Shown here piece after piece: positions 5,020 through 36,345 of a stretch of DNA of 36,671 nt. Within the stretch, counting starts at the first letter, position 1; each line of letters begins with the position of its first letter. Below the pieces are notes generated by a model that ran no database searches, was not told the origin of the DNA, and saw nothing but the letters and a program-made list of their open reading frames with translations. Both the position numbers and the translations under genes were made by a program. The stretch is taken from contig CAYWAK010000004.1 of assembly GCA_964455755.1 (NCBI GenBank), positions 1 through 36,671 of the forward strand, in the 5' to 3' direction. This DNA is from an uncultured Ardenticatenales bacterium (lineage in GTDB: Bacteria > Chloroflexota > Anaerolineae > Ardenticatenales > JAADHH01).

Positions 5020-5052
5020 TTTCTTACCTCCGTTACAATTGTGGCCGGTGGC

Positions 5053-5442: not shown

Positions 5443-5505
5443 GAGTTATCCTCCTCGTACAGGTACCAATTTCTCAACGAACAAAGTCCGTTTGTACATT
5501 GGCTG

Positions 5506-6879: not shown

Positions 6880-6985
6880 CGTCAACCCTCTCAAGTTTCG
6901 GGTTGTCGGTTTCGGGTTTTTGGTTTGGAGCTTGCCTTTCAACCTTTGACCTTGCAACTTGAATCGGGTTGATGCTCGATCACTC

Positions 6986-14527: not shown

Positions 14528-14536
14528 GATGGGCCG

Positions 14537-14565
14537 ATTATAACGTCAATTGGCTGACAGTGCAA
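14537..14565 (-). promoter_or_regulatory. Sigma-70-like box TTGCAC-N17-TATAAT, 9 nt upstream of the ATG at 14527 (near-leaderless)
   Basis: Minus strand: TTGCAC (14560-14565), 17 nt spacer, TATAAT (14537-14542). It shares the 11-mer ACGTTATAATC with the box at 20915. Confidence 0.3.
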
Positions 14566-16972: not shown

Positions 16973-17038
16973 GGGAGCCTCATTATCACAGCGTCTAGAA
17001 TGTTCTATGACGAATGCTTCAGCGATACGAATTGATGG

Positions 17039-17067
17039 ATTGTAACACTGATCTCGCTGAATGACAA
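17039..17067 (-). promoter_or_regulatory. Sigma-70-like promoter TTGTCA-N17-TACAAT upstream of the 808-aa gene
   Basis: Minus strand: TTGTCA (17062-17067), 17 nt spacer, TACAAT (17039-17044). It lies in the 230 nt spacer, ~65 nt upstream of the ATG at 16972. A second TGTGATAAT box (extended -10-like) lies 9 nt before the ATG. Confidence 0.35.
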
Positions 17068-17202
17068 CTGTTGACTTGTGGCAGATGAAAAGGACTCATA
17101 CAGCCGTCCCGTCCACTGCCAGGTAGCCGTACATCCAGCGGCGCATCTTTCCCCCCACCCTGTCATTCTTGGGCGCCAGCACGTACTTCTCATCTACCCC
17201 TG

Positions 17203-18567: not shown

Positions 18568-18569
18568 AA

Positions 18570-20906: not shown

Positions 20907-20914
20907 GGTCACTG

Positions 20915-20943
20915 ATTATAACGTTACTCGTGACTTCAGGCAA
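20915..20943 (-). promoter_or_regulatory. Sigma-70-like box TTGCCT-N17-TATAAT, 8 nt upstream of the ATG at 20906 (near-leaderless)
   Basis: Minus strand: TTGCCT (20938-20943), 17 nt spacer, TATAAT (20915-20920). No SD precedes the start codon. Confidence 0.3.
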
Positions 20944-20987
20944 ATCCGGGGGTTGCGGCGGGTATAGTAGGGGGGAATGCCTCGCCT

Positions 20988-22889
20988 CTACTGCGTTTTC
21001 CGCCAGTGCAGGTAGCTGCGGATTTCCGCGCGCACGCCGGCCAGACCACGCTGCCTCCCGACGGTCAGGGCACGCAGCGGCAACTGCCACCAGGGGGTTG
21101 GCTGTACCAGGTGTTCCGGCGGCACCGGCACCGGTTCTTCCTCCAGCGAGACAGCACGATAGGCCAATTCGCCGGGAACCGGCCGGCCGTTCTCATAGCG
21201 GCCTTCGCCCGTGTCGTAGCGCCAGAGCGTGATCGCGTCTCCCCGGGCCGAGCCGGGCGCTTCCAGGAAGAAATAGAACTGGCGGCCCTGAGAAGTGGGC
21301 ACCGGCGGAAAGACAAAGGAGTGATACTTTGTGTCCTCCAACTCCAGAGCAGGGACGGCGACGGTGGCGATATCTGTCTGATCCTCCGGGTCGCGGCGCA
21401 GATGGAAGACCACCTCGCCGCTATTGAGCCGGTGATAGGTAGAGATGAGCAGATCAATGCGGTGAAGATTGTGGTGTTGGGCCACGAAAGTCTGGCCCAT
21501 GGTGCGTCCGGCGACAAGTTCGCCTGTCGGACGGCGCATTCGTCCGCCGGCGATCACCTGTGGCCGGAAGCGGAACAGCGTGGCAAGCAAATTGCGCGCA
21601 GTTGCCAGCCATGCCTTGCGACGCCGCTCTCCTCGGATGCGCGTGTCGAGTTCGTGCCAGATGGTTGCGCGTTCAACCTCGCGCCGCTCTTTCAGGCGCG
21701 CGATCTGTCGCTCGATTTCGCGCAGCAACTCGCGCGACTGTGGCGCGGCGGGCGCGGCGTCGCGTTGACCAATCAAGCGGCCCGGCTGCAGAGGCCGGCC
21801 GGCTGCGTCCGGCAGATTGCGCAACAGGATCGCTTCCACCTGGCGTGCGGCTCGCTCCCAGGTCAATGATTGCACCTCCCGGAAGGCGGTTTCCACCAGC
21901 CGGTCGCGCAGATGTTCGTCGTAGAGCAATTCCAGCACGGCGTCGGCAATGCTTTGTGGCGTAGGGTCGGCCAGCATGGCATTTACGCGATCCTGCATGA
22001 CCCCCTGGGTAGTTTCCACGCTCAAGTCCACGACGGCGCAGCGGCAAGCCATCATCTCGCGGGGGGCAAAGGAACAGTTCGTCAGGGAAAGGACAAGGCC
22101 CACAGTTGCGGACGAGTAGAGTTCGGCGAGTTGATCCACGGGCAAGACGCCGCGATTCACATAAGGAAAGGGCACCGCGTACGCCGAGAGGTCATCTGCG
22201 CCGAAGAAGACGATTTCGACATCGGGGCGTAGCCGATGGACGCGGGCCAACGCTTCCACGCCAAGCGAAAAGGCGCGTCGCGGTGTGCTCGGCCGGGCAT
22301 AAAAGACAACTCTCGGTCGCGTTGGCTTCGGCAGAGCGCGGGGATAGTAAATGGCGGTATCTACGGGGAAGTCGAAGTAATCGGCTTCCGCGTCATAACG
22401 ATCGCGTAACAGGTTGGTTAACCACGGGCCCAGGGTAATGGCGGTCATGCCCAAACGGTAGGTGTGCTCCGCTTCCAGGTATTCGGCGCTCATGGGTACA
22501 AAATAGGGCTCAAAGTCCTGCACAAAATAGAACTTGTGTGCGCGGGTATCTGCTTCGTACACCAGGTAGGCAGTCCGCCAATGCGTGGCCAGGAGGGCGT
22601 CGCTATCGTGGGTTATGCCATTCCAGCGGTGGATGTCCGCACCGAGGGGGAAGAAGTGCTCCTCGATAAAGCGGGCAATGCCGGCCTCGTCCGTATGTTG
22701 TGCCCATTCGTGGGGAACGACGTAGACACGTTGGTGATATCCGAAATCAGAGAGGTAGCGGATAATGCGGAAGATACCGAAATGGCCGCCGGCGCCTTTC
22801 CACGGCTCCGGAATGACCCAATTCAGGGTCAGCGGCCGGGTTTCTTCCTGGTCCCGTGCGGGCGGAGGCATTTGATTCACGGTGTGCAT
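20988..22889 (-). CDS. WsaF-like GT-B glycosyltransferase + central coiled coil + C-terminal ~130 aa module
   Basis: 633 aa. Residues 18-365 carry LNWVIPEPWKGAGGH, FVQDFEPYF, VVFYARPSTPRR and NCSFAPREMMACRCAVV; from memory this resembles WsaF-type rhamnosyltransferases. Residues 384-427 are charged and heptad-like (RELLREIERQIARLKERREVERA). Residues 455-585 carry GQTFVAQ...FHLRRDPE...YHSFVFP...RQFYFFLEAP...GDAITLW. The start overlaps the upstream stop by 13 nt. Confidence 0.8.
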   Translation of the reverse strand: MHTVNQMPPPARDQEETRPLTLNWVIPEPWKGAGGHFGIFRIIRYLSDFGYHQRVYVVPHEWAQHTDEAGIARFIEEHFFPLGADIHRWNGITHDSDALLATHWRTAYLVYEADTRAHKFYFVQDFEPYFVPMSAEYLEAEHTYRLGMTAITLGPWLTNLLRDRYDAEADYFDFPVDTAIYYPRALPKPTRPRVVFYARPSTPRRAFSLGVEALARVHRLRPDVEIVFFGADDLSAYAVPFPYVNRGVLPVDQLAELYSSATVGLVLSLTNCSFAPREMMACRCAVVDLSVETTQGVMQDRVNAMLADPTPQSIADAVLELLYDEHLRDRLVETAFREVQSLTWERAARQVEAILLRNLPDAAGRPLQPGRLIGQRDAAPAAPQSRELLREIERQIARLKERREVERATIWHELDTRIRGERRRKAWLATARNLLATLFRFRPQVIAGGRMRRPTGELVAGRTMGQTFVAQHHNLHRIDLLISTYHRLNSGEVVFHLRRDPEDQTDIATVAVPALELEDTKYHSFVFPPVPTSQGRQFYFFLEAPGSARGDAITLWRYDTGEGRYENGRPVPGELAYRAVSLEEEPVPVPPEHLVQPTPWWQLPLRALTVGRQRGLAGVRAEIRSYLHWRKTQ

Positions 22890-24934
22890 TGCTCGCTGAC
22901 AGCACGTTTGGACAACATGATCGGCAGGTATTTCTTGTATGGATAGGACACGGCCGGCGGTCGCAAGAGAATAATACCGTCATACGGCGGCAGGGTGACG
23001 CTGTTCACTTCGCTCCCATCATTCACCGTGCGATCTTGCACGCCATTGATCTTGCGGAACGTGCCGCCCAAATCCACGACACGGGCGTGCGGCGAAGCGT
23101 TCACCAGGGCAACGCCATGCGCAAAGTCACGTCGCCAAAGCCGCGCAGCGCCAGACTGGAAGCGCACATCATCCACCCAGACATCTCCCGTAGCCGAGGC
23201 AAGCCCGAATCCGATGCCGGCCCCGCCATGCCCAAAGGTCTGGTTGGCGCGAAAGGAGATGGTGTAATGCCGCCAGGAGGTTCCCAGGTCACGCATCGTC
23301 CAAAGGCCAAGCAACGAGTAGGGATTGTTCATCATTTGGACCCAGATGGCAATCTGCCGGTGGCTGGAGGCGCGCGCCCAGAAAGAGACGGTGTAGGTCT
23401 GATCTTTGGAAACGGACACATCGCCATGCAGAAGGCGCACCCGCCACCAGTTGCCGTAGTCGTCTGCGCCGGGTGCCTGGCGTATGGCCACGTGCATGGA
23501 CGAATTGCCGCCGCTGCACGAGGTCATATCCGGGCTGAAGGAGGCATCGTAGCCGGATCCATGGTCCACGTAGGTATCCCAATCCGTTTGGCCGTCTTCG
23601 AAGGAGCCGTTTGCAAGCAGGGTGCCGGGCAATTCGTCGAGCCAACGCGCATCGGCCAGGGGCTGGCCCAGGTAGCCACGGCCCTGACCGGCATTGTCGT
23701 ACTCATCAAACCACCAGGTATCGCCGTGCCGTTGATCGCCGCTGTCGTAGTAGAAGAAGCCATCCCCCATCAGCGTGCTGGCCAGCCCGAAGCGCATGTC
23801 CCGATAGCTCACCTGGTCCGTGTTGTACGTATTGCTGTTGATGAGCGCCGTGAAAGGGGGCTGGCCCAATTGCGCCCAGGTGGCGTAGCGGTTCATCTCG
23901 AATTGCCAGCGATCGAGTTCCGCGATGTAGGGACTGCTTGCCGTCTGGCCGTAGGGGTCTTTTTGCGCGCTGAAACTTTCGAGCATCAGCCCGTTCATTT
24001 GATCATATGGTGTGCATGAAGTGTTGCCAACAAGCAAGAAGTCGGGACCGGCATAGGCGCGTATCTGGGTGATGAGCTGGCGCACACCGTCCTGCCAGCC
24101 GACCGTGGCATCGGCGACACCGTCGTTGTTAGCATCGGTGTTGCCCCCTTCGATCCACTCAAGGTGGTCGGCGCACTGATCGAGCAAGACGCCGTCCCAC
24201 AGCCCGGAGGCGATGATGGTGTCGCGCACATATTGCGCCAGGAAATCGGTCCAGCGGCGGCCCTGACCGTCGCGCGGCGTGTAAATGCTGTTGTTGAGCA
24301 TCCACGTGCGCCCCAACTCATAATCGTAAAAGCTGGAGGCATGCGCAGCAATGTGTGTGCCTTTCGAATGGGAGGCGGCGACAGAATAGTATCCCCTTTG
24401 CACGCGAATCCGGTTGCCCGAAACCGACGTGACGTGCATGTGTTCCAAGCCTACGCGAACGTCGTCGCCGGCCTTCAGCTTACTGCCATTGGCCACATAA
24501 AACTGCGTGTCGGTGGCACCGATGTCCTGGTCCAGCTTTGTGTAGGGTCGCAGCAACCACCATCCGTCGTAAGGCGTCTGCAGGAAGCGCGTGTCTGCCT
24601 CTTGAGGCAACACCTCTTCCGTCGGAATGAAGGCCAGGATTTTGGCGTTTGGGTTCAGGGCGCGAAGCTGCGCCAGCGATTGTGGGCGCATGCGCACGAT
24701 GCGGTCGTCCAGCACAATGACGTCGTTACGGGCGATGGCCGGCAATTCGGCCTCATCCAGAGCATGCGCCTGATAAATGTGCAGACGCGGGTAGTCATAA
24801 TTCAACGTTGCCTGCGTATGTACGGCGGGCGTCTGTGCCGTCGCCCTGTGGGCAAAGAACAGCACAGAGGACATCAGGGCCAGCACAAGGGCTGCGCCCC
24901 CCAACGTGTTTCGTATCGCTTTGGCCAATTTCAT
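22877..24934 (-). CDS. Secreted glycoside-hydrolase-like protein (GHL15-like TIM barrel, tentative) + CBM4/9-like carbohydrate-binding module
   Basis: 685 aa with a signal peptide (GGAALVLALMSSVLFFAHRATAQ). The central region carries WDGVLLDQCADHLEW...NNDGVAD. The C-terminal part carries LANGSFEDGQTDW...TYTVSFWARA...VWVDDVRF, typical of CBM4_9 jelly-rolls. AAGGA lies upstream of the ATG. Confidence 0.65.
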   Translation of the reverse strand: MKLAKAIRNTLGGAALVLALMSSVLFFAHRATAQTPAVHTQATLNYDYPRLHIYQAHALDEAELPAIARNDVIVLDDRIVRMRPQSLAQLRALNPNAKILAFIPTEEVLPQEADTRFLQTPYDGWWLLRPYTKLDQDIGATDTQFYVANGSKLKAGDDVRVGLEHMHVTSVSGNRIRVQRGYYSVAASHSKGTHIAAHASSFYDYELGRTWMLNNSIYTPRDGQGRRWTDFLAQYVRDTIIASGLWDGVLLDQCADHLEWIEGGNTDANNDGVADATVGWQDGVRQLITQIRAYAGPDFLLVGNTSCTPYDQMNGLMLESFSAQKDPYGQTASSPYIAELDRWQFEMNRYATWAQLGQPPFTALINSNTYNTDQVSYRDMRFGLASTLMGDGFFYYDSGDQRHGDTWWFDEYDNAGQGRGYLGQPLADARWLDELPGTLLANGSFEDGQTDWDTYVDHGSGYDASFSPDMTSCSGGNSSMHVAIRQAPGADDYGNWWRVRLLHGDVSVSKDQTYTVSFWARASSHRQIAIWVQMMNNPYSLLGLWTMRDLGTSWRHYTISFRANQTFGHGGAGIGFGLASATGDVWVDDVRFQSGAARLWRRDFAHGVALVNASPHARVVDLGGTFRKINGVQDRTVNDGSEVNSVTLPPYDGIILLRPPAVSYPYKKYLPIMLSKRAVSEQCTP

Positions 24935-24998
24935 GAAATCCTTTTTGCGTCCGTTTGCCTCGCGGAGACTTCAGGCCACGGCAAGATTCGACCAGCCT

Positions 24999-26282
24999 CT
25001 ACTGAAGGGCGGCCAACTGGGCCAGCACCTGTTCCATTTCATGGTGGATGCTGCGTTGAAAGGCGGCAAACGCCTCCTCCTGTTGGGCACTCATTTGCCG
25101 CAAGCCTTCCACCTGCGATTGTTGCTTCTCGATGACATCCTGCTGCCGCGTGATGTGCCGCAAGAGCCGGGCGATGATTTGCTCGGCCAACAGGGCGGCG
25201 GGCGGCGCAGGCGGTGCATCTGCCAACAGTGTTTGCAGCATGTCCCCAAACTCGCTGCTGCAACTTTCGGGCGTATAGCGGCGGTACACATCCTGTAACG
25301 CGGCCTGGCCAAGGGCATGGCGTCGCTCTGGATCACCAATCAATTCGTGCAGCGCCCGCTCCCAATCATCTGGGGTCTGCGCCAACAATCCGTTCTCCCC
25401 GTCCGTGATGGCCCATCTGTAGGCATCCGTCGGACTGGCGACGGTAGGAACGGCCACCGCGCCCGCTTCAAAATACTTGAGTTCGCTCTTTGCCCGGCAA
25501 AAGGGACTCTCTGTCTGCAGCGGCACAATGTTGATATCCGTTTGGGCAATGACGTGCGGCAGTTCACGCCAGGGCAGATAGGGCGTGCGTACGACACGAT
25601 CCAACAGCGGATCGAATTTGTAGCTCAGATTTAGTTCGCCGGCCACGTGCAGCCACACGTGCGGGTGAGCGCGCATCACCTTGACCAACACATCGGTAAT
25701 CGCGCGAAAGTCCCGATCGTGGGAGCCGCTCCCGCTGAAATAGCCGATAATCACGCGGTCATCGTCGGGCGAACGGTGGCGGTTCCGCTGCGCCTCCTCC
25801 GAGATACGCAGCAATTCGTCGCTCAGCACATTGCGATTGACGAAGGCCTGTTTGCCAAATCGGCGCGCAGCTTCTGCCAGGTATTCCGTCGGGACGAGCA
25901 CATGGCGACAACGTTGGAAGGTGGCTTCGTAGCCACGCAACACTTGCCGGTAGCGGCGGGCCTCTGCCGCCGTCATCGTATCCAACAGCGGCACCTGGCC
26001 GGCCGCCTCCGGATCGAAAATGAGATCATCGGTCTCGAACAATACCGGTTTATGCGCGAACTCCGTCAACGCCAGGAAATCGGCGATCAGGGGGGAGAAG
26101 GGCACTCGATGAAGGATAATAACATCATGAAGAGCCACATCCCCCAGGATTGTGGAGTCATCGTCCAGTTTCAGGGTGTTTTGAATTCCCAGCAAGCGCA
26201 ACTGCGCTTGCTGGTGGTCACAGCGATAGCGGCGGGTATCCCCCGGCGTACCGCTCACAAAAAGCACGGCTCGTTCGGTCAT
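24999..26282 (-). CDS. GT-B glycosyltransferase (module A) with ~70 aa C-terminal coiled-coil tail
   Basis: 427 aa with RYRCDHQ, FETDDLIFDP, IGYFSGSGSHDRDF and CRAKSELKYFEAGAVAVPTVAS. The tail is LLAEQIIARLLRHITRQQDVIEKQQSQVEGLRQMSAQQEEAFAAFQRSIHHEMEQVLAQLAALQ. There is a 4-nt ATGA overlap with the wzm stop. Confidence 0.75.
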   Translation of the reverse strand: MTERAVLFVSGTPGDTRRYRCDHQQAQLRLLGIQNTLKLDDDSTILGDVALHDVIILHRVPFSPLIADFLALTEFAHKPVLFETDDLIFDPEAAGQVPLLDTMTAAEARRYRQVLRGYEATFQRCRHVLVPTEYLAEAARRFGKQAFVNRNVLSDELLRISEEAQRNRHRSPDDDRVIIGYFSGSGSHDRDFRAITDVLVKVMRAHPHVWLHVAGELNLSYKFDPLLDRVVRTPYLPWRELPHVIAQTDINIVPLQTESPFCRAKSELKYFEAGAVAVPTVASPTDAYRWAITDGENGLLAQTPDDWERALHELIGDPERRHALGQAALQDVYRRYTPESCSSEFGDMLQTLLADAPPAPPAALLAEQIIARLLRHITRQQDVIEKQQSQVEGLRQMSAQQEEAFAAFQRSIHHEMEQVLAQLAALQ

Positions 26283-27109
26283 ACTTCCTCACTGAAGCGC
26301 GGGCTAAATCGGCGGAAAACGGCATATCCTACGACAAGAAACGCAACCGCCGTGAAAAAGGTACGCAGGAAGAAGTCCCCCGCCGGCGGAATGCCTTTGT
26401 AAAGCACCTCGCGATAGGCCGCCACCAACGAGGCCATCGGGTTGAGATAGAATGTCCAGCTCCACACATTGATGGTCATCCCCAACACAACCTGTTTGTG
26501 CGGCAAGATTTCGATGGGGTAGAACACGGGCGTGAGGAAGAACCACGCCAGCATGACAACCTCCATGATTACGCGCATATCGCGGTAGAAGACGTTGATA
26601 GTACCCAAGATAAAGGTCAGCCCAATCGTGAAGAAAAGCTGCGTCACGACGATAACGGGGAGTAGCAGTACCCAGACGGTGACCCGAATGCCGGAAAGGT
26701 ACAGCAAAGGAAAAAGGACCAGCAGAGAGAGCAGGAAGTTTACCAGGTTGGATAGGACCAGGGAAATCGGCAGGACTTCGTGCGGAAAATAGACCTTGCG
26801 CACCAGGTCGGCATGGCTAACCACGCTGTCCAGCCCACCGACAACAGACATAGAGAACCAGTTCCAGGGCAACAGGCCGATGAGGACAAAAGCCGGAAAA
26901 TGCTCAACGTTGCCGCTGGGAATCATTACCGTGAAGACGGCCGTGAAAACGATCATCATCAGCAATGGGTTGATGAGACTCCACAAGAAGCCGAGAACGG
27001 AGTTCTTGTACCGCACCTTCAGGTCTCGCAACACCAGGTTGGCAAGAAGGTCGCGGTAGGTATAAAGCTCACGAAGGTCGTTTGGCAAATTCGTTATCTG
27101 TGCGATCAT
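26279..27109 (-). CDS. wzm: ABC-2 type polysaccharide exporter permease
   Basis: 276 aa. RDLLANLVLRDLKVRYKNSVLGFLWSLINPLLMM is the hallmark N-terminus of Wzm/TagG/KpsM permeases. Six TM helices. Confidence 0.9.
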   Translation of the reverse strand: MIAQITNLPNDLRELYTYRDLLANLVLRDLKVRYKNSVLGFLWSLINPLLMMIVFTAVFTVMIPSGNVEHFPAFVLIGLLPWNWFSMSVVGGLDSVVSHADLVRKVYFPHEVLPISLVLSNLVNFLLSLLVLFPLLYLSGIRVTVWVLLLPVIVVTQLFFTIGLTFILGTINVFYRDMRVIMEVVMLAWFFLTPVFYPIEILPHKQVVLGMTINVWSWTFYLNPMASLVAAYREVLYKGIPPAGDFFLRTFFTAVAFLVVGYAVFRRFSPRFSEEV

Positions 27110-27113
27110 GGCC

Positions 27114-28127
27114 TCAATAAAGCTGCTTCACGCGCTGCCTGAGCTTTGCAAACCACCCCTTTTCGTAGGTAGCAATCTGGTCTTCCAATTCCCGAATGCG
27201 GGCATCCTTTTCCCGAATCGCTTTGAGGAGCTCGGCAGATCGTGCATCCTTTTCTGCGTAGAGCGCATAAATCCATTCGGACAAGGGTTTCCCGTCTGGT
27301 GTAGAATCTTTTCCAAACCGATACATGTCATTACAATCCTTACAAATCGTAAACCTGACCCCATGCTGCGAAATTCGCTCCCGCTTTTCCACTACATCGG
27401 TCAGGCGATCCGCAGTCAAATTGCCAAGCACCGCCTCTCCTCCCAAATCGTGACAGCAGGAAAGCACGTCCCCGTTCCAGGCGACGAAAAGCGTGCCGGC
27501 GAAGATATCGCAGCGACCAAAATTGACCGGCGACAGGGGAGTTTCGCAAACCAGGGGATTGTTGAAGTGCCCGCCCCGATTGTGACACTGTGAAAAGAGG
27601 ATTTCGTGGATACCAAGGTCTTCCAGGTACGTACGGAGCGCGGCCAAATGGGACTCCGTTTGGCGCGTAACGCTTACGTTCGCCGAAACCTTGGCCCTTC
27701 CCTCCGCCATCTGAACAAAACCCCGGATGTTGCCGGCGGCTCTCTCCAGAGAAAGCCCTCCCATCATCTGTGAATACAACTCTTCGTGATGTCCGTTAAA
27801 GCTGATGATAATGGTTTCCAGGCCGGCGTCCAGCAGCTTCTCTGCGCGCCTCGGCGACAAGGTGGAAGCATTCGTCGTCAGCACGGTCGAGACCCGTCCG
27901 GACAAATAGGCGATGAACCGCGGCAGGTCAGGATTCAAGGTAGGTTCGCCGATGCCAGAGAAACTCACAGCCTGCACCGTGTCGCACGCAAGCACACCGT
28001 CCGCGATTGGCCGGAAGACGTCCCAGGACATCTTGCCCAGGGGGCGCGTCAGCGATTCGCGGGGACAGTGCAGGCAATGTGTGTTGCAAAGGTTCGTAGC
28101 CTCGAATTCGACTATTTCCATTGCCAT
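27114..28127 (-). CDS. Radical SAM enzyme with truncated SPASM/twitch-like auxiliary motif and C-terminal coiled coil
   Basis: 337 aa. CNTHCLHC (CxxxCxxC) is at residues 14-21, followed by GIGEPTL. C-x12-G-x4-C (CDIFAGTLFVAWNGDVLSC) and CKDC follow. The tail is EKDARSAELLKAIREKDARIRELEDQIATYEKGW. The start overlaps the wzt stop by 16 nt (10 nt if the second ATG is used). The stop lies 4 nt before the wzm ATG. Confidence 0.85.
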   Translation of the reverse strand: MAMEIVEFEATNLCNTHCLHCPRESLTRPLGKMSWDVFRPIADGVLACDTVQAVSFSGIGEPTLNPDLPRFIAYLSGRVSTVLTTNASTLSPRRAEKLLDAGLETIIISFNGHHEELYSQMMGGLSLERAAGNIRGFVQMAEGRAKVSANVSVTRQTESHLAALRTYLEDLGIHEILFSQCHNRGGHFNNPLVCETPLSPVNFGRCDIFAGTLFVAWNGDVLSCCHDLGGEAVLGNLTADRLTDVVEKRERISQHGVRFTICKDCNDMYRFGKDSTPDGKPLSEWIYALYAEKDARSAELLKAIREKDARIRELEDQIATYEKGWFAKLRQRVKQLY

Positions 28128-29323
28128 TCGCCCGCCAACGAAACCATGCCGTATTTTTCGTCGACCGCGCGCACCCGAAAATGGTACAAGCGGTCATGAT
28201 AATCATAGATTATCGTATCCTCCCAATCTCGAATTGCGGCTGAAAGCTCGTAGCGGCCTTCCAGCAAAGAGAGCCGGCCAATCCGGTAACGTATGACCCC
28301 CTCATTCTCGAGGGCCGGCAATTCATGGCCGGCGAACTGGGTATTGGGCCCGGAAACGTGGGCACCATCGCTGCGGTGGACGGCCAGACCAAAAACGGGG
28401 CGTTCAATTCGGCGTGCGGCACGGAAGTGAATCTCGACGACCAGGGGATCCCCGGTACGGAATACCTGCTTGTCCTGGCCGTGATCATCCAACAGGCGTA
28501 CGTCTGTGATTTTGGCCTCGCCGCTGCCCCAGCGCCGAAGCTCGCCTTCCTCCTCGTTCGGCGTTAGCGTCCCCTCTTCTTTCTGCCAGGTGCGGTCGAG
28601 GTAGCGGGCAACGACCGCTGTTGATGATCCGTCGGCAACCACCGTGCCTCCGTCCAACCAAATTACCCGCGAACACACCGATTGCACCATGTCCGCGCTG
28701 TGGGAGACGAAAAAGATCGTCACGCCCCGGTCATGCAATTGATCAATGCGGTCAAAGCACTTGCGCTGAAACGAATTGTCCCCCACCGCCAGCACTTCGT
28801 CCACAATCAGGATGTCCGGGTTCACCATCGTGGCGATGGAAAAGCCAAGGCGCACTTGCATACCCGACGAGTAGTGCTTCACGGGCATGTCTATGAAGCT
28901 GCCGATGTCCGCAAAGTCTACGATTTCGTCGAAGCGCCGGCGGATTTCCGGACGCGGAACGCCCAGCACCGAGGCGTTGAGAAAGATGTTTTCACGGCCG
29001 GTCAAGTCGGCGTGAAAGCCGGCGCCAAGTTCGAGCAGGGCCGACAAGCGTCCGTGAACTTCCACATGGCCCACCGTCGGTTTCAGGATGCGCGTGGCCA
29101 GTTTGAGCAGCGTACTCTTGCCTGCCCCGTTCGGACCAATGATACCTATCGATTCCCCCTGCTCCACCTGGAAGCTGATGTTGCGCAAGGCCCAAAACTC
29201 TTCCCGGCTACCACTCTCTCGTTGAAAAAGGTTGATTACGGTCTCCTGGAAAGAGCGGGGACGATCATGATGCAGTATGAATTTTTTGGAGACACCATCA
29301 AATCGAATAGCTACGCTCAACAC
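28112..29323 (-). CDS. wzt: ABC polysaccharide exporter ATPase with ~150 aa C-terminal extension (Wzt_C-like glycan-binding domain, inferred)
   Basis: 403 aa. Walker A GPNGAGKSTL, signature YSSGMQVRL and Walker B ILIVDEVLAVGD are present. Residues ~255-403 extend beyond the NBD (KITDVRLLD...VVEIHFRA...GRYELSAAI), as in cap-recognising Wzt proteins. GTG start. Confidence 0.9.
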   Translation of the reverse strand: MLSVAIRFDGVSKKFILHHDRPRSFQETVINLFQRESGSREEFWALRNISFQVEQGESIGIIGPNGAGKSTLLKLATRILKPTVGHVEVHGRLSALLELGAGFHADLTGRENIFLNASVLGVPRPEIRRRFDEIVDFADIGSFIDMPVKHYSSGMQVRLGFSIATMVNPDILIVDEVLAVGDNSFQRKCFDRIDQLHDRGVTIFFVSHSADMVQSVCSRVIWLDGGTVVADGSSTAVVARYLDRTWQKEEGTLTPNEEEGELRRWGSGEAKITDVRLLDDHGQDKQVFRTGDPLVVEIHFRAARRIERPVFGLAVHRSDGAHVSGPNTQFAGHELPALENEGVIRYRIGRLSLLEGRYELSAAIRDWEDTIIYDYHDRLYHFRVRAVDEKYGMVSLAGEWQWK

Positions 29324-29361
29324 TCCTGCCCTTTTCCGGTATTTGACGATCAGCTCGCCGT

Positions 29362-29390
29362 ATTATATCGCAACTGACCAGCCTGGGCAA
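29362..29390 (-). promoter_or_regulatory. Sigma-70-like promoter TTGCCC-N17-TATAAT upstream of wzt
   Basis: Minus strand: TTGCCC (29385-29390), 17 nt spacer, TATAAT (29362-29367). It lies ~40 nt upstream of the wzt GTG. Confidence 0.4.
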
Positions 29391-29423
29391 ATACTTGTTT
29401 CTTGCAGGATTCGCAATGTGCCT

Positions 29424-29456
29424 AGAAGTTCAACTTCTCGGGGAGGTTGAACTTCT
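29424..29456. promoter_or_regulatory. Three copies of half-site AGAAGTT/AACTTCT (15-bp perfect palindrome plus a third copy); candidate operator/activator site
   Basis: AGAAGTTCAACTTCT at 29424-29438 is a perfect 7-1-7 palindrome. GTTGAACTTCT at 29446-29456 repeats the half-site and can also pair with 29424-29434. It is centred ~40-65 nt upstream of the -35 box of the wzt promoter. Confidence 0.3.
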
Positions 29457-29639
29457 TGACTAACGGAACGTACTTGATGGACTTTGAGGAAGGCGCATGT
29501 AGGCTTAGGGGTGAAACGAGGCAATTGCTAAACTCCGGGGCAGCCTTACCCCTAGATATAGTGGCTAATAGCCGGTGAAACACAAGATATAGAGGGAAAA
29601 TGTCTGTCCAGACGCGGCTGAGGCCTCTTCACCTCGAAA

Positions 29640-29704
29640 CCCACATGGGCCTTGAGGAATTACGCAGAGCACTGTGCCCGAGAGCCTGATCACGCCCATG
29701 TGGG
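29640..29704 (-). terminator. Long-range 11-bp perfect stem immediately after the sortase stop
   Basis: CCCACATGGGC (29640-29650) pairs with GCCCATGTGGG (29694-29704) around a 43 nt loop. On the minus strand it starts 3 nt after the TAG and is followed by TTTCGAGG. Confidence 0.3.
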
Positions 29705-29707
29705 GAG

Positions 29708-30490
29708 CTACTTGTTTGCCGCCAGTTGACCACTGTCCAGGAGTTTGGCCACCACAATGACACGGTGGGTGTTGTTTGTGTAGGGCCAGCAGGTCACTAA
29801 CGTCAGACGCGCATCATTTGTAGGCCCGATCCAACGCACGTTTTGCGCTTGTTGTGCCGGGGAGACCCCCTTCTCCGGCACGATGAGGCGCAGGGAAACG
29901 ACATACACGTACGGGACACCATCGGCATACAAGGTTATGCGATCCCCCGGCTTGAGGTCTACCACGTAGCGGAAAACTTCCCCGGCGATATTGTGGTGTC
30001 CGGAGAGCACAACGTTCCCTCGCTGTCCGGGGTACGCGCTGTTCTGGTGCCAGCCGGCCGCATAGTCGGCCACGTCCCACACGCTTACCGTCTGGCCATT
30101 TTGCTGCTCCTCGTGCCAGCCGATGGGCGTCACCGGGGCGTCCAGGCCAATGGCGGGGGCTGTAATACGCGACGGGGGTGACTGGGCCGCAAGGGGCGGT
30201 GCCGTTGTCGGTGTGGGCCGGGGAGTTGCCGTCGGGCTTGGCAACGCGACCGTCGCTCGCGGCTTCTGCGCGCCGGCATCCACCGCCGCACCTGTTGTCG
30301 CAACCTGCTTCTGCGGAAGAGCACGACCGGCCGGCTGCTTCCGGCTCACGACGACCTGACAACCGGCCAGCCCGCCGGCGGCCAGCACACTCAGTGCCAG
30401 CATGGCAACGGGCGCCATTCGCCGGCAAAGCTTCGCCAAACCGAAGGTATTAGACCAGTGCTGGCGTGCGGGCCTGGGAAGAAAAGTCAT
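29708..30490 (-). CDS. Sortase-family transpeptidase with TM anchor and Pro/Thr-rich linker
   Basis: Catalytic motifs VVLSGHHN (His) and LTLVTCWPY (TLxTC Cys) are present, then R in THRVIVVA. There is an N-terminal anchor MAPVAMLALSVLAAGGLAGC and a linker PSPTATPRPTPTTAPP. The start is ambiguous: TTG 30499, ATG 30490 or ATG 30418. The first two overlap the upstream gene. Confidence 0.8.
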   Translation of the reverse strand: MTFLPRPARQHWSNTFGLAKLCRRMAPVAMLALSVLAAGGLAGCQVVVSRKQPAGRALPQKQVATTGAAVDAGAQKPRATVALPSPTATPRPTPTTAPPLAAQSPPSRITAPAIGLDAPVTPIGWHEEQQNGQTVSVWDVADYAAGWHQNSAYPGQRGNVVLSGHHNIAGEVFRYVVDLKPGDRITLYADGVPYVYVVSLRLIVPEKGVSPAQQAQNVRWIGPTNDARLTLVTCWPYTNNTHRVIVVAKLLDSGQLAANK

Positions 30491-32057
30491 TATTGGCAAA
30501 CCCTGTTCCTAATCGATCAAGTTGGCGCGCTTCGTCTCGTTCCCTCCACCGCAAATAACTATGCAGGGCCTTCACAACTTCCCGGTCCCACTGGCTCCCC
30601 GCGCCTTCGCGGAGCGTGGTCAGGGCCTTGCCAACAGACATTGCATCCCGATAGGCTCGCCTCGCGGTCATAGCCTCGAATCCGTCAGCAACGGCCAATA
30701 TTCGCACGAAGAAAGGGACTTCATCTCCTTGCAACCCGTCGGGATAGCCCGTACCATCCATACGCTCATGGTGATGCAGAACCATGTCCTCGATCTCGTC
30801 CGACCCCGGCACCTTGTGCAATATCTCAGCACCGATGACCGTGTGTTGTCGCATCGTGACCCACTCCTCCTGTGTCAAGAGACCGGGTTTTAGCAGAATC
30901 TGGTCTGGGATACCAATCTTACCGATGTCGTGGAGCAAGCCCCCTTTGTGTAGCAGCGCCGATTCGCTTTTGCTCAAGCCCAGATGCTGTGCAATGGCTA
31001 CGGAATATCGAGCAACCCGGCGGGAGTGTCCAGACGTGTAACTGTCTCTTGCCTCCACAGCATTGGCCAATGCCGACACGGTTCCCAGGTATTGTTGTTC
31101 CAGGTTCTGGTAAAGTGCCGTGCTTTCCAGTGCCGCTGAGATTTGGCCGGTTAGGAGCGTAAAGACTTGGGTGTCCCGTTCACTGTACGCCCCTACCCTT
31201 GCAGCATAGACCACCAGCGCACCTTGCGGCTCCTTGTGCAAAAGCAGGGGAGCGGCCAACAGGGAACGGAAGCCGAGCGATTGCCATTCCGCCGGCAAGG
31301 CCAACGCGTCCTCGGTACGCACATCGTCTACGCAAAAGGGTAACCCCTGTTCAGTGGCGCGCATGGCGACCGGTGCATTATCAAGGAAGGTAGCAGTACC
31401 GGCAACGGGTTCAGGAATCCCGGCGGTGGCCTGCACAGATAGCACGTGGTCGTTTTCTTTCCGCAACCAGATCGCACAGGCTGCGGAATTCATAATTTCT
31501 CGTGCCCGATTTGCCGTAAAGCGGAGCATGGAACCAGGGTCGGGAAGGGTGATCAACTGGCGTCCAACGTCAACCAGCTTTGCCAGAGTCAAGAATTCCA
31601 TGTGCGCACTTAACAATTCACGATTTGTCGTCTCGATCTCTGCCATGGCCTGTTCCAGGCTCCGTAGCAGTTCTCGATTCCGAAGCTCGGCGCGGCGCTT
31701 GTCCAGGGCGCGAGCAACAGTTGACACAACCAGGGACAAAGATTCGAAAGGCTTGCGCAAATAAGCGAAAGCCCCTTCGTTCAATCCTTCGATTGCAGAT
31801 TCGGTGGAGGCATGGCCGGTAATGAGGATTACTTCAATGAAGGGGTCAACCAGCTTTACCTTGTGTAATACATCGATTCCGCTCATCCCGGGCATGCGGA
31901 TATCGGTGATTACAACGTCCGGGGCATGTTGCTGTACCATGGCCAGGGCATCCTTGGGGTTTGTGACAGGAAACATATCCCAGCCCTGTTGGTTCAACAG
32001 GCGGCCCATCACAGCGAGTACTTCAGGCTCGTCATCCAAGATGATAATTGCGGGCAT
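30450..32057 (-). CDS. Response regulator REC-GAF-HD-GYP (c-di-GMP phosphodiesterase type)
   Basis: REC: IIILDDEPE...DVVITDIRMPGMSG...LRKP. A coiled-coil linker and a GAF-like middle region follow. HD-GYP: HSRRVA...LLHDIGKIGIP...HHHERMDGTGYPDGL. The ATG at 32057 has GAGGGA 6 nt upstream. The track start at 32102 is an upstream extension. Confidence 0.85.
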   Translation of the reverse strand: MPAIIILDDEPEVLAVMGRLLNQQGWDMFPVTNPKDALAMVQQHAPDVVITDIRMPGMSGIDVLHKVKLVDPFIEVILITGHASTESAIEGLNEGAFAYLRKPFESLSLVVSTVARALDKRRAELRNRELLRSLEQAMAEIETTNRELLSAHMEFLTLAKLVDVGRQLITLPDPGSMLRFTANRAREIMNSAACAIWLRKENDHVLSVQATAGIPEPVAGTATFLDNAPVAMRATEQGLPFCVDDVRTEDALALPAEWQSLGFRSLLAAPLLLHKEPQGALVVYAARVGAYSERDTQVFTLLTGQISAALESTALYQNLEQQYLGTVSALANAVEARDSYTSGHSRRVARYSVAIAQHLGLSKSESALLHKGGLLHDIGKIGIPDQILLKPGLLTQEEWVTMRQHTVIGAEILHKVPGSDEIEDMVLHHHERMDGTGYPDGLQGDEVPFFVRILAVADGFEAMTARRAYRDAMSVGKALTTLREGAGSQWDREVVKALHSYLRWRERDEARQLDRLGTGFANNDFSSQARTPALV

Positions 32058-32100
32058 GCACATTCCCTCGCATTTCAGCAAGCCATGAGTCTGAAACAGC

Positions 32101-32121
32101 AAAAAACCACCGCACCGGTTG
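32101..32121 (-). terminator. Intrinsic terminator after flaG
   Basis: Minus strand: CAACCGGTGCGGTGG (6-bp stem, one mismatch) followed by TTTTTT. It is preceded by a 7-bp hairpin CAGAGGC-N5-GCCTCTG at 32137-32155. Confidence 0.45.
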
Positions 32122-32182
32122 AAGCATCCAGAACGGCAGAGGCAATGAGCCTCTGTGATTCATGTAGAATCTACCCTTTCCT

Positions 32183-32548
32183 CTACATCTTCCATTCAAG
32201 CAAAAGGCCACGGTAGAGGTTTTGATCGGAGATCAGGCGTGACAATTCATCAGGCGGAATTGAGCGTATGGTTTTGCCCGATTGCGCATCTATGATCCGC
32301 ACGGAGATCTTGTGAGAATCACGATCCACCTCAAATTGTGCGTATGTGTAAGAGATAGCCGCCTGCTTTCCAGTTTCCCCGGGGGTCGAGGTTGCATTAC
32401 CCCCATCTTCCGGTACTTTATAGGCAGGTTTCAACTCTGCACGTTGCGCCTGTGCTTCCGAAAAACGCCGTGCCGCATCCATGGCCACCATAGCTTGTGT
32501 GCGCTCCGGTTGAACAGCTCCTTGTATTTTATCTACCTTGTCTACCAT
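32183..32548 (-). CDS. flaG: FlaG-family flagellar protein
   Basis: 121 aa. The C-terminal FEVDRDSHKISVRIIDAQSGKTIRSIPPDELSRL matches the FlaG pattern. GGAGG lies 7 nt upstream of the ATG. It sits next to fliD. Confidence 0.8.
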   Translation of the reverse strand: MVDKVDKIQGAVQPERTQAMVAMDAARRFSEAQAQRAELKPAYKVPEDGGNATSTPGETGKQAAISYTYAQFEVDRDSHKISVRIIDAQSGKTIRSIPPDELSRLISDQNLYRGLLLEWKM

Positions 32549-32654
32549 CTTCGTGCCTCCAATATCTTATCGCCAGGTTGCGGTTGTGAAAACAGTACCT
32601 GGATGCCAGTAATCAGTAACTGGCGGGCGCAGGCTCCCTGGCTCCCTCCCTACA

Positions 32655-34427
32655 TCAACCGAAAACGTTCATAATGCCGGACATGCCACTCATCGTCTTT
32701 TGGCCTTCGTACATCAACTGGGCCATCTGCACCTGCAACGCGCCATACTGCTTCACTAACAGGCTCCGTCGACGGGCCAAAGTGGCATTCATGCTCTCGA
32801 TTCGATCGGCGGTCGCATCTATTTGACTCTGGATGTTCGTTTCAGTCGTATCAATGATGCCATCGGTCTGCGTGTAGGGCGTGATTCGCGCAATCATGTC
32901 CGAAGTAATCTGATCGAATAAGCCCGACACGTTCTGAAAGTCGTTGGTCAGCGCTGTATCAAGCGCCGTACTGTCCGACACAGTCGCCTGCAGGTTTCCG
33001 TCCAGGGTGATGCCGATCTCTTGCAATCTGTCTGCCGATGTCGCCGGCAGGCCGCTGACCGCTTCTTGAAATATGCCGTACAAATCGAAGCGCATGCTGC
33101 TCAGCCCGGTATCTCCCGCCAACCCGCCGCGTGTATATGTGGTACCGGAGAGCGTAGTACCTGTTTTGTCTTTCAGAAAACCGGTCATTGCATTGAATTT
33201 GGAAATGAAATCATTGATCTTGGTCTTCACGGCGTTGTTATCGGCTTTGACTTGCAGGGTGGCGCTTTCTCCCTGCTTCAGAAGATTCAGGGTAACGCCC
33301 GAAGTGACATCGGTCAGCCCGGTGTTGGACTGGCGAGTCACCGACACATTGTTCACCGTGAAGCTGGCGTTCGCAGCGGCCTGGTCGTTCCCGGAACCGC
33401 CATTGGCATGCAATATCCGCGTCGTCGTGTCGGTCGTGTCAAAGCCCAAACTATTAAGGATACCGTTCGTATCTTCGAAGCGGACTTGGTGCAGTGTGCC
33501 GGTACTGCTTGATTCCAATACCAGATAGCGGTCTATGACCGAAGCCGTCACACCGTTTCCACTTGCATAGGTGCCCGAGTTGATCGCATCGGCAATGTCT
33601 TGCAGGCTTTGCGTGCTGGTGACGGCGATGCTGGCACCCTGCGGCATGAAATCCACGCTGGCCGCGCCGCTCCCCTTGGTGCCGGCGGTGTAGCTGCCGG
33701 ACGCTGCAATGGTAAAGGTCAAGCCCCGGCCAGTGTCCACAGTCTGACCGGCGTCCACCATGTCTTGCCAGTCACTGGTCATGGTCGTACCGCTATCATA
33801 GATGTCGTCTATGCTAACAGCGTTTCCCTGGCTGTCTACCATCCGGAATTCCCAGTCCGTGCTGTCCGAAGGATTCTGGCGCACTTCCACACTGTAGGTG
33901 TCGGCGCCCAGCTCCGTCTCTCCTGTGAAGGGCGCAGCGGTGCCAAAGCCGGTGATCGTATTGGCTACCGTCGAGGCATTCGATGTAGCCCGGCTGGCGG
34001 CCCCGCCCACGTAGATTGTGCCGGAAAGGCCGAGAGCCTGGTCACTGTACGACTGCTGGCTCGATCTCACCTGGTGGGACTGGGCCAATGTTGTGATGCT
34101 AATGTCATAATTGGCGACCGCTGCGCTGGTCGAAGCTGTTGCAGAGAAAACGTCGGCGGTAGTGATACTGGGATTGGTCACGGCCGTTGTTTTGGCCCCA
34201 AAAATCGAGCTGTTGGCTGTGGAGCTGGCCGATTCGTCCAAGCTCTCCAACGACGATTTCAACGCATCGAACTTCGTCCCCAAATCGGTGTACAACCCCT
34301 TCTGCGTTATCAGAGTCGTTTTCTGCTGTTTTACCCGCGTCAATGGCCTGCTCTCTTGCGCCATCACCGCATTGATCAGATTCGTGAAATATGCACTTGT
34401 GTTGCTGGGAATTCCTGGGATGGACAT
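32655..34427 (-). CDS. fliD: Flagellar filament cap protein (hook-associated protein 2)
   Basis: 590 aa. The N-terminus is LINAVMAQESRPLTRVKQQKTTLITQKGLYTDLGTKFDALKSSL. The C-terminus is RRRSLLVKQYGALQVQMAQL. These are typical FliD N- and C-terminal helices. Confidence 0.9.
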   Translation of the reverse strand: MSIPGIPSNTSAYFTNLINAVMAQESRPLTRVKQQKTTLITQKGLYTDLGTKFDALKSSLESLDESASSTANSSIFGAKTTAVTNPSITTADVFSATASTSAAVANYDISITTLAQSHQVRSSQQSYSDQALGLSGTIYVGGAASRATSNASTVANTITGFGTAAPFTGETELGADTYSVEVRQNPSDSTDWEFRMVDSQGNAVSIDDIYDSGTTMTSDWQDMVDAGQTVDTGRGLTFTIAASGSYTAGTKGSGAASVDFMPQGASIAVTSTQSLQDIADAINSGTYASGNGVTASVIDRYLVLESSSTGTLHQVRFEDTNGILNSLGFDTTDTTTRILHANGGSGNDQAAANASFTVNNVSVTRQSNTGLTDVTSGVTLNLLKQGESATLQVKADNNAVKTKINDFISKFNAMTGFLKDKTGTTLSGTTYTRGGLAGDTGLSSMRFDLYGIFQEAVSGLPATSADRLQEIGITLDGNLQATVSDSTALDTALTNDFQNVSGLFDQITSDMIARITPYTQTDGIIDTTETNIQSQIDATADRIESMNATLARRRSLLVKQYGALQVQMAQLMYEGQKTMSGMSGIMNVFG

Positions 34428-34485
34428 TATATCCCCTCACGGTTTTTGATTTCGGATTTGCAATCCCAAATGTTGGAATCGCTAC

Positions 34486-34887
34486 CTACGCTGCAGCGCT
34501 CACGTAACGCACACTGCCTCCCGGAACTGCCACCGGCGCCGTTTGCAACTGAGATTCGACCGGGGCCATCTGGGCCGCCAGTTGTCGGCTGGCCTCTTCC
34601 CATGCGTCGCGTAGCTCCTGCAGGGTGTCGGAGACTTCGCCCCATTTCCCCTTGCGTGCCAATTCCGCACACCACACGTAAATAGCCATCATACGGTTAG
34701 CAAATTCCGGCTGATCATAATTCAATGCGTCGCGCAGTGTGCCTAGCGCGCGGGTTGTACGCTCCAGATCGTGCTGGTTGCTGCTCTGAATCGCAATGTC
34801 ATAGACCATCACGACCCTTTCCAAAGGGTTCGCACCCACTACTCGATTATTCCGATACGTTTCCAATGCTGTGTTACGGTTTGCCAT
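34486..34887 (-). CDS. fliS: Flagellin-specific chaperone
   Basis: MANRNTALETYRNNRVVGANPLERVVMVYD...IYVWCAELARKG matches the FliS four-helix pattern. The ATG at 34887 has GGAGGA upstream. The track start at 34905 is an extension. Confidence 0.9.
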   Translation of the reverse strand: MANRNTALETYRNNRVVGANPLERVVMVYDIAIQSSNQHDLERTTRALGTLRDALNYDQPEFANRMMAIYVWCAELARKGKWGEVSDTLQELRDAWEEASRQLAAQMAPVESQLQTAPVAVPGGSVRYVSAAA

Positions 34888-34939
34888 CTTTCCTCCGTTT
34901 ATCACGTTCGCTTCCAGCGATCAGTCGTCAGTGTTTTGC

Positions 34940-34996
34940 CCCCCGCAGGGGGAGCAGCTACCAGCCTGGGGCATATCGCCAGAGACTGGTAGCTGC
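34940..34996 (-). terminator. Strong hairpins between fliC and fliS (candidate attenuator/terminator, no U-tract)
   Basis: GCAGCTACCAG (34954-34964) pairs perfectly with CTGGTAGCTGC (34986-34996). An adjacent CCCCC-GCA-GGGGG lies at 34940-34952. Both are ~40-95 nt after the fliC stop. Confidence 0.35.
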
Positions 34997-35035
34997 CAGC
35001 CGTGAGGTTAGAAAATCAACACGGCTCCTACGAGA

Positions 35036-36313: not shown

Positions 36314-36345
36314 TATGATCACCTCCATGCGATCTATTGATTGGA

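Follow-up and report, generated by a model that had tools for sequence, protein, structure and literature searches.

In a 36,671-nucleotide (nt) stretch of DNA from an uncultured Ardenticatenales bacterium of the Chloroflexota (contig CAYWAK010000004.1, analysed at its full length and hereafter called the window), a gene for a radical S-adenosylmethionine (SAM) enzyme, named rSAM below, lies between wzt and wzm, the genes for the ATPase and the permease of a glycan-exporting ABC transporter. We found that rSAM belongs to a new, uncharacterised family of twitch-domain enzymes built into ABC-transporter-dependent glycan assembly. By analogy with known O-antigen systems, it is a plausible candidate for the terminator, or cap-making enzyme, of the exported glycan, a role that we place somewhat short of probable. 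An earlier note on the same DNA had proposed such a capping function; its observations were confirmed, and part of its interpretation is supported. The coupling of chain termination to export is the quality-control step in a very common route by which O-antigens, S-layer glycans and cell-wall polysaccharides are made. Full-text literature searches found no paper linking a radical SAM enzyme with Wzm/Wzt, O-antigen termination or rhamnan assembly; two papers on Xanthomonas that turned up were chance matches.

A BtrN-like twitch radical SAM enzyme

The motifs on which the earlier note had relied (CNTHCLHC, GIGEPTL, C-x12-G-x4-C and CKDC; coordinates in Table 1) are all present in the translation of rSAM and conserved in its homologues. 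Conservation was scored on 23 aligned homologues sharing 41-63% identity. The ligands of the SAM cluster, C14, C18 and C21, are kept in nearly all of the aligned sequences that are not truncated at the N terminus, and G58, G60, E61, P62 and L64 of the GIGEPTL motif are invariant. The same is true of the motif cysteines between positions 181 and 265 and of the other residues listed for the twitch region, which reads C181-H-N-R184-G-G, C194, C206-x12-G219-x4-C224-C225-H-D and C262-K-D-C265. With a CxxxCxxC motif, a GGE-type motif and a Pfam Radical_SAM (PF04055) match above the gathering cut-off (49.6 bits, cut-off 29.5), the protein has the features that define the radical SAM superfamily. Pfam SPASM was also matched (33.6 bits, cut-off 21.5), and the region had been described as a truncated SPASM or twitch pattern. 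It was found to contain the BtrN-type C-x9-15-G-x4-C hairpin and CxxC; the second half of the SPASM motif (CX2CX5CX3C) is missing and no cysteine occurs beyond C265, so that twitch is the correct label. No NCBIfam family scored above its cut-off (best 94 bits against 380), and the homologues carry source annotations that are unspecific or disagree with one another ("AslB", "PFL activase", "MoaA/NifB/PqqE family").

Profile and fold comparisons both pointed to BtrN, the 2-deoxy-scyllo-inosamine dehydrogenase of the butirosin pathway (PDB 4M7T/4M7S), as the closest solved relative, in agreement with the kinship suggested before. A profile built from 23 family members was searched against all PDB sequences and retrieved BtrN first (E = 1e-20), then BlsE, the lipid synthase Tes, DesII and MoaA, with NifB also among the matches. 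In the profile alignment, C14, C18 and C21 of rSAM correspond to C16, C20 and C23 of BtrN, and C206, C224, C262 and C265 to C169, C187, C232 and C235, while R184 of the invariant CHNRGG loop falls on R152. Goldman et al. are said to have identified these four BtrN cysteines in 2013 as the ligands of its auxiliary cluster and to have proposed R152 as the base. BtrN catalyses the two-electron dehydrogenation of a sugar alcohol, and its auxiliary cluster is held by four Cys ligands (PMC9012708). The AlphaFold2 (AF2) model of rSAM has a predicted local distance difference test score (pLDDT) of 79 and shows a partial TIM-barrel pattern of strands and helices; pLDDT falls below 50 at residues 184-189, which is to be expected of cluster-dependent loops. 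With this model as the query, Foldseek ranked BtrN at the top (E = 1.6e-11; template modelling score 0.76, normalised on BtrN; ~19% identity), followed by BlsE, anSME and EpeE. SuiB and SkfB were also matched, and all matches were radical SAM enzymes.

Judged from its sequence, rSAM is a catalytically complete BtrN-like twitch radical SAM enzyme of an uncurated family. The two proteins share the radical SAM core and the twitch domain, and by analogy the abstraction of a carbinol hydrogen from a carbohydrate would be expected in both. The differences are equally clear. At ~19% identity, and with wzt, wzm and glycosyltransferase (GT) genes as neighbours instead of the aminoglycoside genes that surround btrN, rSAM is not an orthologue of BtrN. 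Its family carries a coiled-coil/amphipathic tail of 55-190 amino acids (aa) that BtrN lacks, and its substrate is presumably a polymer end, whereas that of BtrN is a free aminocyclitol. Three further cysteines, C181, C194 and C225, which the earlier note did not list, are likewise conserved without exception across the family and lack counterparts in BtrN. They may bind a third cluster or, as thiols, donate a hydrogen atom; radical SAM epimerases use a hydrogen-atom donor. rSAM may work like BtrN, though it is not BtrN itself.

Linkage to wzt and a tail shared with glycosyltransferases

We searched for rSAM homologues and analysed their gene neighbourhoods. A word-indexed search gave 152 homologues, of which the 120 listed share 42-62% identity; most come from metagenomes of Chloroflexota/Anaerolineae. 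In an exhaustive profile search, the tailed core family was represented by ~35 clusters, and 532 representatives were found at E ≤ 1e-30. We took 165 loci (L numbers below), scored the neighbours with the window's own Wzt nucleotide-binding domain (NBD), Wzt_C and Wzm, and collapsed orthologues at 90% identity into 41 groups, to which locus L172 was added. The rSAM gene abuts wzt in 29 of the ~40 informative non-redundant loci, and it does so in different gene orders: wzt-rSAM-wzm in the window, L001 and L172; wzm-wzt-rSAM in L003, L005, L009, L019, L025, L108 and others; rSAM-wzt in L010, L012, L014, L016 and L093-L099; and rSAM-wzm-wzt in L030. Adjacency that is kept through such rearrangement is strong evidence for a functional linkage between rSAM and wzt. 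In L172, the three genes form a bare wzt-rSAM-wzm cassette amid unrelated housekeeping genes. The G+C content of the corresponding stretch of the window (26000-29000) is 0.54-0.58, against 0.59-0.66 in the downstream glycosyltransferase genes (12000-26000), which is consistent with wzt, rSAM and wzm moving as a cassette, as in the stand-alone L172.

The Wzt of the window carries, by sequence and by model, a bona fide carbohydrate-binding module (CBM), and the carbohydrate-binding sandwich that had been assigned to its extension was thus recovered. Besides the Wzt_C match (Table 1), its NBD matches Pfam ABC_tran (E = 4.8e-21), and the best PDB sequence match of the full-length protein is the Wzt of A. 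aeolicus (8DKU/7K2T, E = 8e-70, residues 20-388). The C-terminal domain alone matches the solved carbohydrate-binding domain (6O14/8DKY) at ~1e-5. In the AF2 model, residues 270-402 are all-beta, and the top Foldseek matches are the full-length WzmWzt structures 8DNE/7K2T (E = 2e-38). Wzt_C is carried by Wzt in ~27 of the 29 non-redundant loci in which rSAM adjoins wzt.

The second feature of the family is its tail. Past the CxxCNDxYRF motif, this region measures 66-189 aa (median 107, 105 homologues), and the tail of the window's protein is among the shortest. Across the family, the tail is made up of the SEW(I/V)YxLY motif in one or two copies, a helical segment of heptad-like character whose length varies greatly, and a basic amphipathic end, "AAYERGRFIRLMRWL" or "SRSWRxxQxLxxxR". 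A home-made heptad score did not discriminate, and the coiled coil was therefore judged from the AF2 helix and from the length variation across the family. In the window's protein, a single helix is predicted at residues 295-336 with moderate confidence (pLDDT 63-73). The coiled-coil-like tail described earlier may correspond to this helix, in a layout of head, putative coil and basic end.

The end motif "YERGRFIRLMRWL" is common to the rSAM tail and to GT4 proteins adjoining wzt. When 11,692 open reading frames (ORFs) from all loci were scanned, the motif was found on 26 rSAM ORFs and on the GT4s of L173 and L174, as well as on the GT4s immediately downstream of rSAM in L007, L015, L087, L090 and L091. 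The occurrence of the same tail on rSAM and GT4 heads points to a shared docking module with exchangeable catalytic heads, and from the sequences this module looks like a portable docking element of the Wzm/Wzt assembly complex. A search with the tail only for proteins with other types of head gave no matches. We found no support for the rSAM and GT4 tails of one locus having evolved in concert, as their identity is 0.31 within the same locus and 0.32 between loci.

Fusions extend this picture. In four contigs (L025, L026, L108 and L109), rSAM, coiled coil and anchor motif continue into two GT2 modules in one protein of ~1,020 aa, encoded directly after wzm and a wzt with Wzt_C; the same fusion is seen in the representative P0123. 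Another representative, P0121, joins an FkbM methyltransferase to rSAM and a coiled coil and is followed by rmlC-rmlB. GT4-rSAM, rSAM-TPR-GT41 and rSAM-methyltransferase fusions occur in the wider family. An apparent rSAM-Wzt fusion in two hot-spring-type assemblies (L011 3010-5877; L104 3911-5515) was discarded as a frameshift or assembly error: the frame switches within the rSAM tail into that of wzt, with loss of the end motif, and the genes are separate in the sister contigs L012 and L093-L098.

We also approached the locus from the side of Wzt, whose close homologues number at least 120 at 47-74% identity, far more than rSAM has, and read the genomic contexts of five relatives with 62-74% identity. 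In L173 and L174, which lack rSAM, the wzt stop is overlapped by a co-directional gene for a ~460-aa GT4 with an rSAM-type tail. Three configurations can thus be distinguished: wzt-GT4(tail) (A); wzt-rSAM(tail)-GT4(tail) in tandem, in five clusters (B); and wzt-rSAM(tail)-wzm with rSAM as the sole tail-bearing protein, in the window, L001 and L172 (C). The window's Wzt_C is nearest to those of the rSAM-bearing L172 (69%) and L001 (66%), whereas its NBD is nearest to that of L171, which lacks rSAM. By their Wzt_C domains, L171, L173 and L174 form one group, and the domain of L090, a configuration B locus, is nearer to the A group. Similarity of Wzt_C therefore tracks cluster configuration and not NBD relatedness (three against three loci), the pattern expected if the ligand of the CBM changes with the catalytic head.

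L171 has the closest NBD (84%), but its Wzt_C is only 57% identical, and neither rSAM nor wzm follows its wzt. It shares with the window (28112-36328) a flagellin-FliD-FlaG-response regulator-sortase-wzt synteny, and the two diverge from Wzt_C onward; downstream of wzt, L171 has a convergent GT2, a Pel9A-like protein and an RgpF-hydrolase. Recombination with a breakpoint inside wzt, between the parts for NBD and CBM, is therefore suggested, where wzt borders on a variable glycan locus.

A candidate chain terminator and its alternatives

In characterised systems (the class of WbdD, WbbB, ORF7-O4 and ORF6-O7), each terminator precedes a coiled coil, at the N-terminal end distal to the rest; some stop after the coil and others run on into GT modules, as does O7 ORF6 (methyltransferase-kinase-coiled coil-GT2-GT2); and wherever chains are terminated, Wzt has a CBM (PMC11231755). 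By sequence and analogy, the rSAM family appears to match all three features of this grammar. The layout of N-terminal head, variable coiled coil and C-terminal membrane-proximal amphipathic region recalls WbdD of Escherichia coli O9a/O8 and Klebsiella pneumoniae O3/O5, which is likewise encoded together with wzm and a CBM-bearing wzt (PMC11231755). The head of WbdD is a kinase/methyltransferase, whereas here it is a radical SAM enzyme; the coiled coil of the window's protein is very short, a ruler function and a terminal modification are hypothetical, and its host is a Chloroflexota bacterium that encodes a sortase. The GT2-GT2 fusions, for their part, resemble the single terminator-coiled coil-GT-GT polypeptides O7 ORF6 and O12 WbbB of K. 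pneumoniae. In L025, L026, L108 and P0123, the order of modules after wzm-wzt(CBM) is the same, with the radical SAM domain in the place of the terminator, while the protein of the window is stand-alone and ends after its coiled coil. The replacement of rSAM by a tail-bearing GT4 in the slot overlapping the wzt stop, in the rSAM-less L173 and L174, also supports a terminator role, as do the grouping of Wzt_C by cluster type and the failure of Pfam scans to detect a methyltransferase or kinase domain in the window's cluster.

In the mechanism that we infer, the SAM cluster (C14/C18/C21) would cleave SAM to a 5'-deoxyadenosyl radical, which would take a carbinol hydrogen from one of the sugars in the lipid-linked glycan, and the auxiliary cluster (C206/C224/C262/C265) would accept the electron. 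The product would be a keto-sugar, or an epimer if an extra invariant cysteine gave a hydrogen atom back. The coiled coil and basic amphipathic tail would hold the head at the membrane-associated polymerase/transporter complex, as in WbdD-type terminators. Acting there on the non-reducing end, the head would stop elongation and make or complete a terminal epitope, to be read by Wzt_C before export. A more specific version is doubtful, namely that the BtrN-like head on a coiled-coil ruler oxidises or epimerises the acceptor carbon of the terminal sugar, with radical SAM chemistry providing both termination and export licensing. Oxidation at the carbon bearing the acceptor hydroxyl would remove the nucleophile of the polymerase and create an epitope for the Wzt CBM. 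In this version, heads of the rSAM and GT4 types could replace each other on one kind of docking tail.

Several observations weigh against a terminator role. About a quarter of the orthologues are not beside wzt. Those of L020-L024 and L107 (Chloroflexia/Anaerolineales) lie near GT-C/PMT, GT4, GFO_IDH_MocA or rml genes, with wzm 4.9 kb from rSAM and past rmlCBAD in L023, and in L013 (Roseilinea) rSAM does not adjoin wzt either. A subfamily at ~40% identity (Acidobacteria, Opitutaceae) is found beside MacB/FtsX permeases without a glycan-cluster context and was therefore excluded from the claim of linkage to wzt. In L005 and L030, rSAM is paired with a Wzt that lacks Wzt_C. In three of the five Wzt-relative contexts (L171, L173 and L174) there is no rSAM at wzt, and just one long contig in the Wzt list coincides with an rSAM-bearing contig, so that rSAM is dispensable for this transporter type. 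The co-variation of Wzt_C rests on three loci against three. The coiled coil of the window's protein spans only ~three heptads, for which the heptad score is uninformative. The tail-bearing GT4 beside rSAM in five clusters could be the real terminator, and the GT4 encoded after wzm in the window also ends in a coiled coil. The earlier statement that no coiled-coil terminator is present in this locus was thus too strong. Finally, rml genes directly flank rSAM in many loci, which fits a dTDP-sugar substrate.

Much of this evidence would suit a docked glycan-tailoring enzyme that provides no termination or export signal, acting on internal residues, on the lipid-linked primer or on a cap added by a GT, with the coiled-coil GT4 as terminator. 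Same-tail GT4s follow wzt whether or not rSAM is present, a coiled-coil GT4 follows wzm in the window, the majority of closely related Wzt clusters are without rSAM, and rSAM is also paired with the CBM-less Wzt of L005 and L030. We nevertheless consider this reading somewhat unlikely, since in the window, L001 and L172 rSAM is the sole protein with the anchor motif and occupies the slot overlapping the wzt stop, and since Wzt_C groups with this rSAM-only configuration.

The rml neighbours raise the alternative of a DesII-like modifier of nucleotide sugars, which would convert dTDP-L-rhamnose or dTDP-4-keto-6-deoxyhexose into an unusual donor for a GT to install. These genes abut rSAM in several arrangements: rSAM-rmlC-rmlB-rmlA(-rmlD) in L005, L023/L169 and L170, rmlD-rSAM-wzt in L010, L012, L016 and L098, and rSAM between rmlC and rmlB in L107. 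They recall pathways for TDP-sugars, and BtrN, BlsE and DesII all act on small soluble carbohydrates. DesII and BlsE, which use TDP-sugar or nucleoside-sugar substrates and are among the sequence and fold matches of rSAM, match only its radical SAM core and lack aligned twitch ligands and the tail. It is not obvious why an enzyme of soluble precursors should require a coiled coil of variable length and a basic amphipathic end of the type found on GTs of a membrane complex. No rml gene was found near rSAM in the window, L001 or L172, the last of which is a bare cassette, and fusion to a two-module GT2 polymerase beyond the coiled coil is better suited to chemistry on a polymer end. This reading is unlikely. 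Taken with the WsaF-like GTs of the window, the recurrent rml neighbours do suggest rhamnose-based polymers, and the cluster of the window probably makes a rhamnose-rich polymer.

A SPASM-class maturase of a protein or peptide, with Wzt, Wzm, a secreted protein of the cluster or an unseen peptide as its target, might be read from the Pfam SPASM match, from the similar overall fold of anSME, EpeE, SuiB and SkfB and from the "AslB" annotations, but it is highly improbable: only the twitch half of the seven-Cys SPASM motif is present, the PDB profile search did not retrieve anSME and gave PqqE merely 9e-4 against 1e-20 for BtrN, all NCBIfam maturase families scored far under cut-off, and the tightly packed operon holds neither a sulfatase gene nor a short precursor ORF, the absence of a precursor-like peptide gene having been remarked on before. 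Sulfatase-maturase readings and those involving peptides made on ribosomes and modified after translation (RiPPs) were rejected on these grounds of motif, profile and context.

If rSAM does act as a terminator, it would be the first radical SAM enzyme known to work on a polysaccharide chain end, and lipid-linked polysaccharide ends would be a new substrate class for these enzymes. The terminators covered in PMC11231755 add a methyl, a methyl-phosphate or a residue of Kdo (3-deoxy-D-manno-octulosonic acid); rSAM would be the first to change an existing residue by C-H activation rather than to add a group, and would place an unprecedented catalytic head on the principle of the coiled-coil terminator. 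Either as a terminator or as a docked tailoring enzyme, it would bring C-H activation on the polymer into the repertoire, and could explain diversification of surface glycans in the understudied Chloroflexota. Even without a terminator role, rSAM and its homologues make up a clearly delimited, uncharacterised clade of BtrN-like enzymes whose pathway context is evident. Its tail, coiled coil plus "YERGRFIRLMRWL", offers a sequence handle for finding components of assembly complexes in metagenomes and may serve for swapping heads.

Gene layout of the window

The genes wzt, rSAM, wzm and GT4 are packed head to tail on the minus strand (Table 1). The initial codons of rSAM contain the wzt stop, giving an overlap of 16 nt, or 10 nt from the second ATG; the reverse complement of this junction (28112-28127) reads ATGGCAATGGAAATAG. 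The second ATG, which would give a protein of 335 aa, is favoured as the rSAM start by gene callers and by the homologue P0002. The rSAM stop (27114-27116) is separated by 4 nt from the wzm ATG (27109), and wzm overlaps the GT4 gene by 4 nt at its stop. The earlier description of both rSAM junctions was accurate; its conclusion that the enzyme is made stoichiometrically with the transporter cannot be inferred from overlapping codons. Terminator-like matches between the genes of the window are weak consensus matches that lie inside coding sequence. The NCBIfam matches of wzm to galactan_ABC_perm and KpsM are below cut-off.

Table 1. Features of the window and of related loci. Coordinates are those of the window unless a locus is named.
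Feature	Position (nt)	Strand	Description
wzt	28112-29323	minus	403 aa, GTG start; ABC-transporter ATPase, NBD at residues ~1-250
Wzt_C (PF14524)	28139-28537	minus	Wzt residues 263-395; Pfam E = 1.1e-31
Promoter-like site	29362-29390	minus	TTGCCC-17-TATAAT, 10/12, upstream of the wzt start; consensus match only
rSAM gene	27114-28127	minus	337 aa (335 aa from second ATG); Radical SAM/twitch-domain, helical tail
rSAM CxxxCxxC (C14-x3-C18-x2-C21)	28065-28088	minus	Putative ligands of the SAM-binding [4Fe-4S] cluster, from the translation
rSAM GIGEPTL	27936-27956	minus	Residues 58-64; "GGE"-type SAM-binding motif
rSAM twitch domain and active-site loop	27318-27587	minus	Residues 181-270; invariant residues, BtrN alignment
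rSAM C-terminal tail	27117-27284	minus	Residues 282-337; SEWIYALY motif, short coiled-coil-like helix, basic amphipathic end YEKGWFAKLRQRVKQLY
wzm	26279-27109	minus	276 aa; ABC-2 permease of glycan exporter; Pfam ABC2_membrane E = 2.4e-15
GT4-type glycosyltransferase	24999-26282	minus	Pfam Glyco_trans_1_2 and Glycos_transf_1
C-terminal coiled-coil-like tail of the GT4	25002-25190	minus	Residues ~365-427; read from the tail sequence
Rest of glycan cluster	12536-24934	minus	Pfam
GHL15+CBM4_9 protein	22877-24934	minus	685 aa; Pfam
Two WsaF-like rhamnosyltransferase-type GTs	20988-22889, 18570-20912	minus	Pfam
Further GT	17203-18732	minus	Pfam
DUF6541 and DUF2142 proteins	12536-16972	minus	808 aa and 663 aa; large predicted membrane proteins; Pfam
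Tail-bearing GT4s at wzt	L173 8191-9576; L174 8251-9627		~460 aa; short coiled coil and "GYERGRFIRLMRWL"
Tail-bearing GT4s beside rSAM (same ~460-aa family and C-terminal module)	L007 7007-8380; L087 7039-8436; L090 7052-8416; L091 1319-2791; L015 6858-8423		
rml genes next to rSAM	L005 9311-12860; L169 11129-13498; L107 5420-12147; L170 2455-3645; L010/L012/L016/L098 ~5000-5950		
Subfamily at ~40% identity	L028 192-7356; L029 3472-6987		Opitutaceae and Acidobacteriaceae; MacB/FtsX-type ABC permeases adjacent, in L028 also LptD

The GT4 after wzm has an orthologue at the same position in L001 (63% identity), where the protein with the glycosyl-hydrolase-like GHL15 domain and CBM_4_9 is also kept in place. 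Pfam scans detected no methyltransferase or kinase domain in the glycan cluster of the window. After the DUF6541 and DUF2142 proteins come two ORFs of ~500 aa each (10994-12535 and 9387-10853), which gave no Pfam match even at E = 0.05. These proteins may serve the pathway as ligases or as extracytoplasmic glycosyltransferases. Upstream, the glycan cluster is preceded by genes for a sortase and a response regulator and by flagellar genes.

In L001, the closest rSAM-bearing relative, a lasso-peptide-like set is located divergently upstream of the wzt-rSAM-wzm cassette (2290-5688; also in L002). It comprises PqqD, Asn_synthase, NTP_transf_5 and HPr_kinase_C-like proteins and a 53-aa ORF, is absent from the window and is probably unrelated to rSAM. 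The window also encodes, at its far end, a GNAT-AMP-binding (acyl-CoA synthetase-like) fusion (1841-4006) and two tandem family III CoA-transferases (5506-8425), apparently without relation to the glycan cluster.

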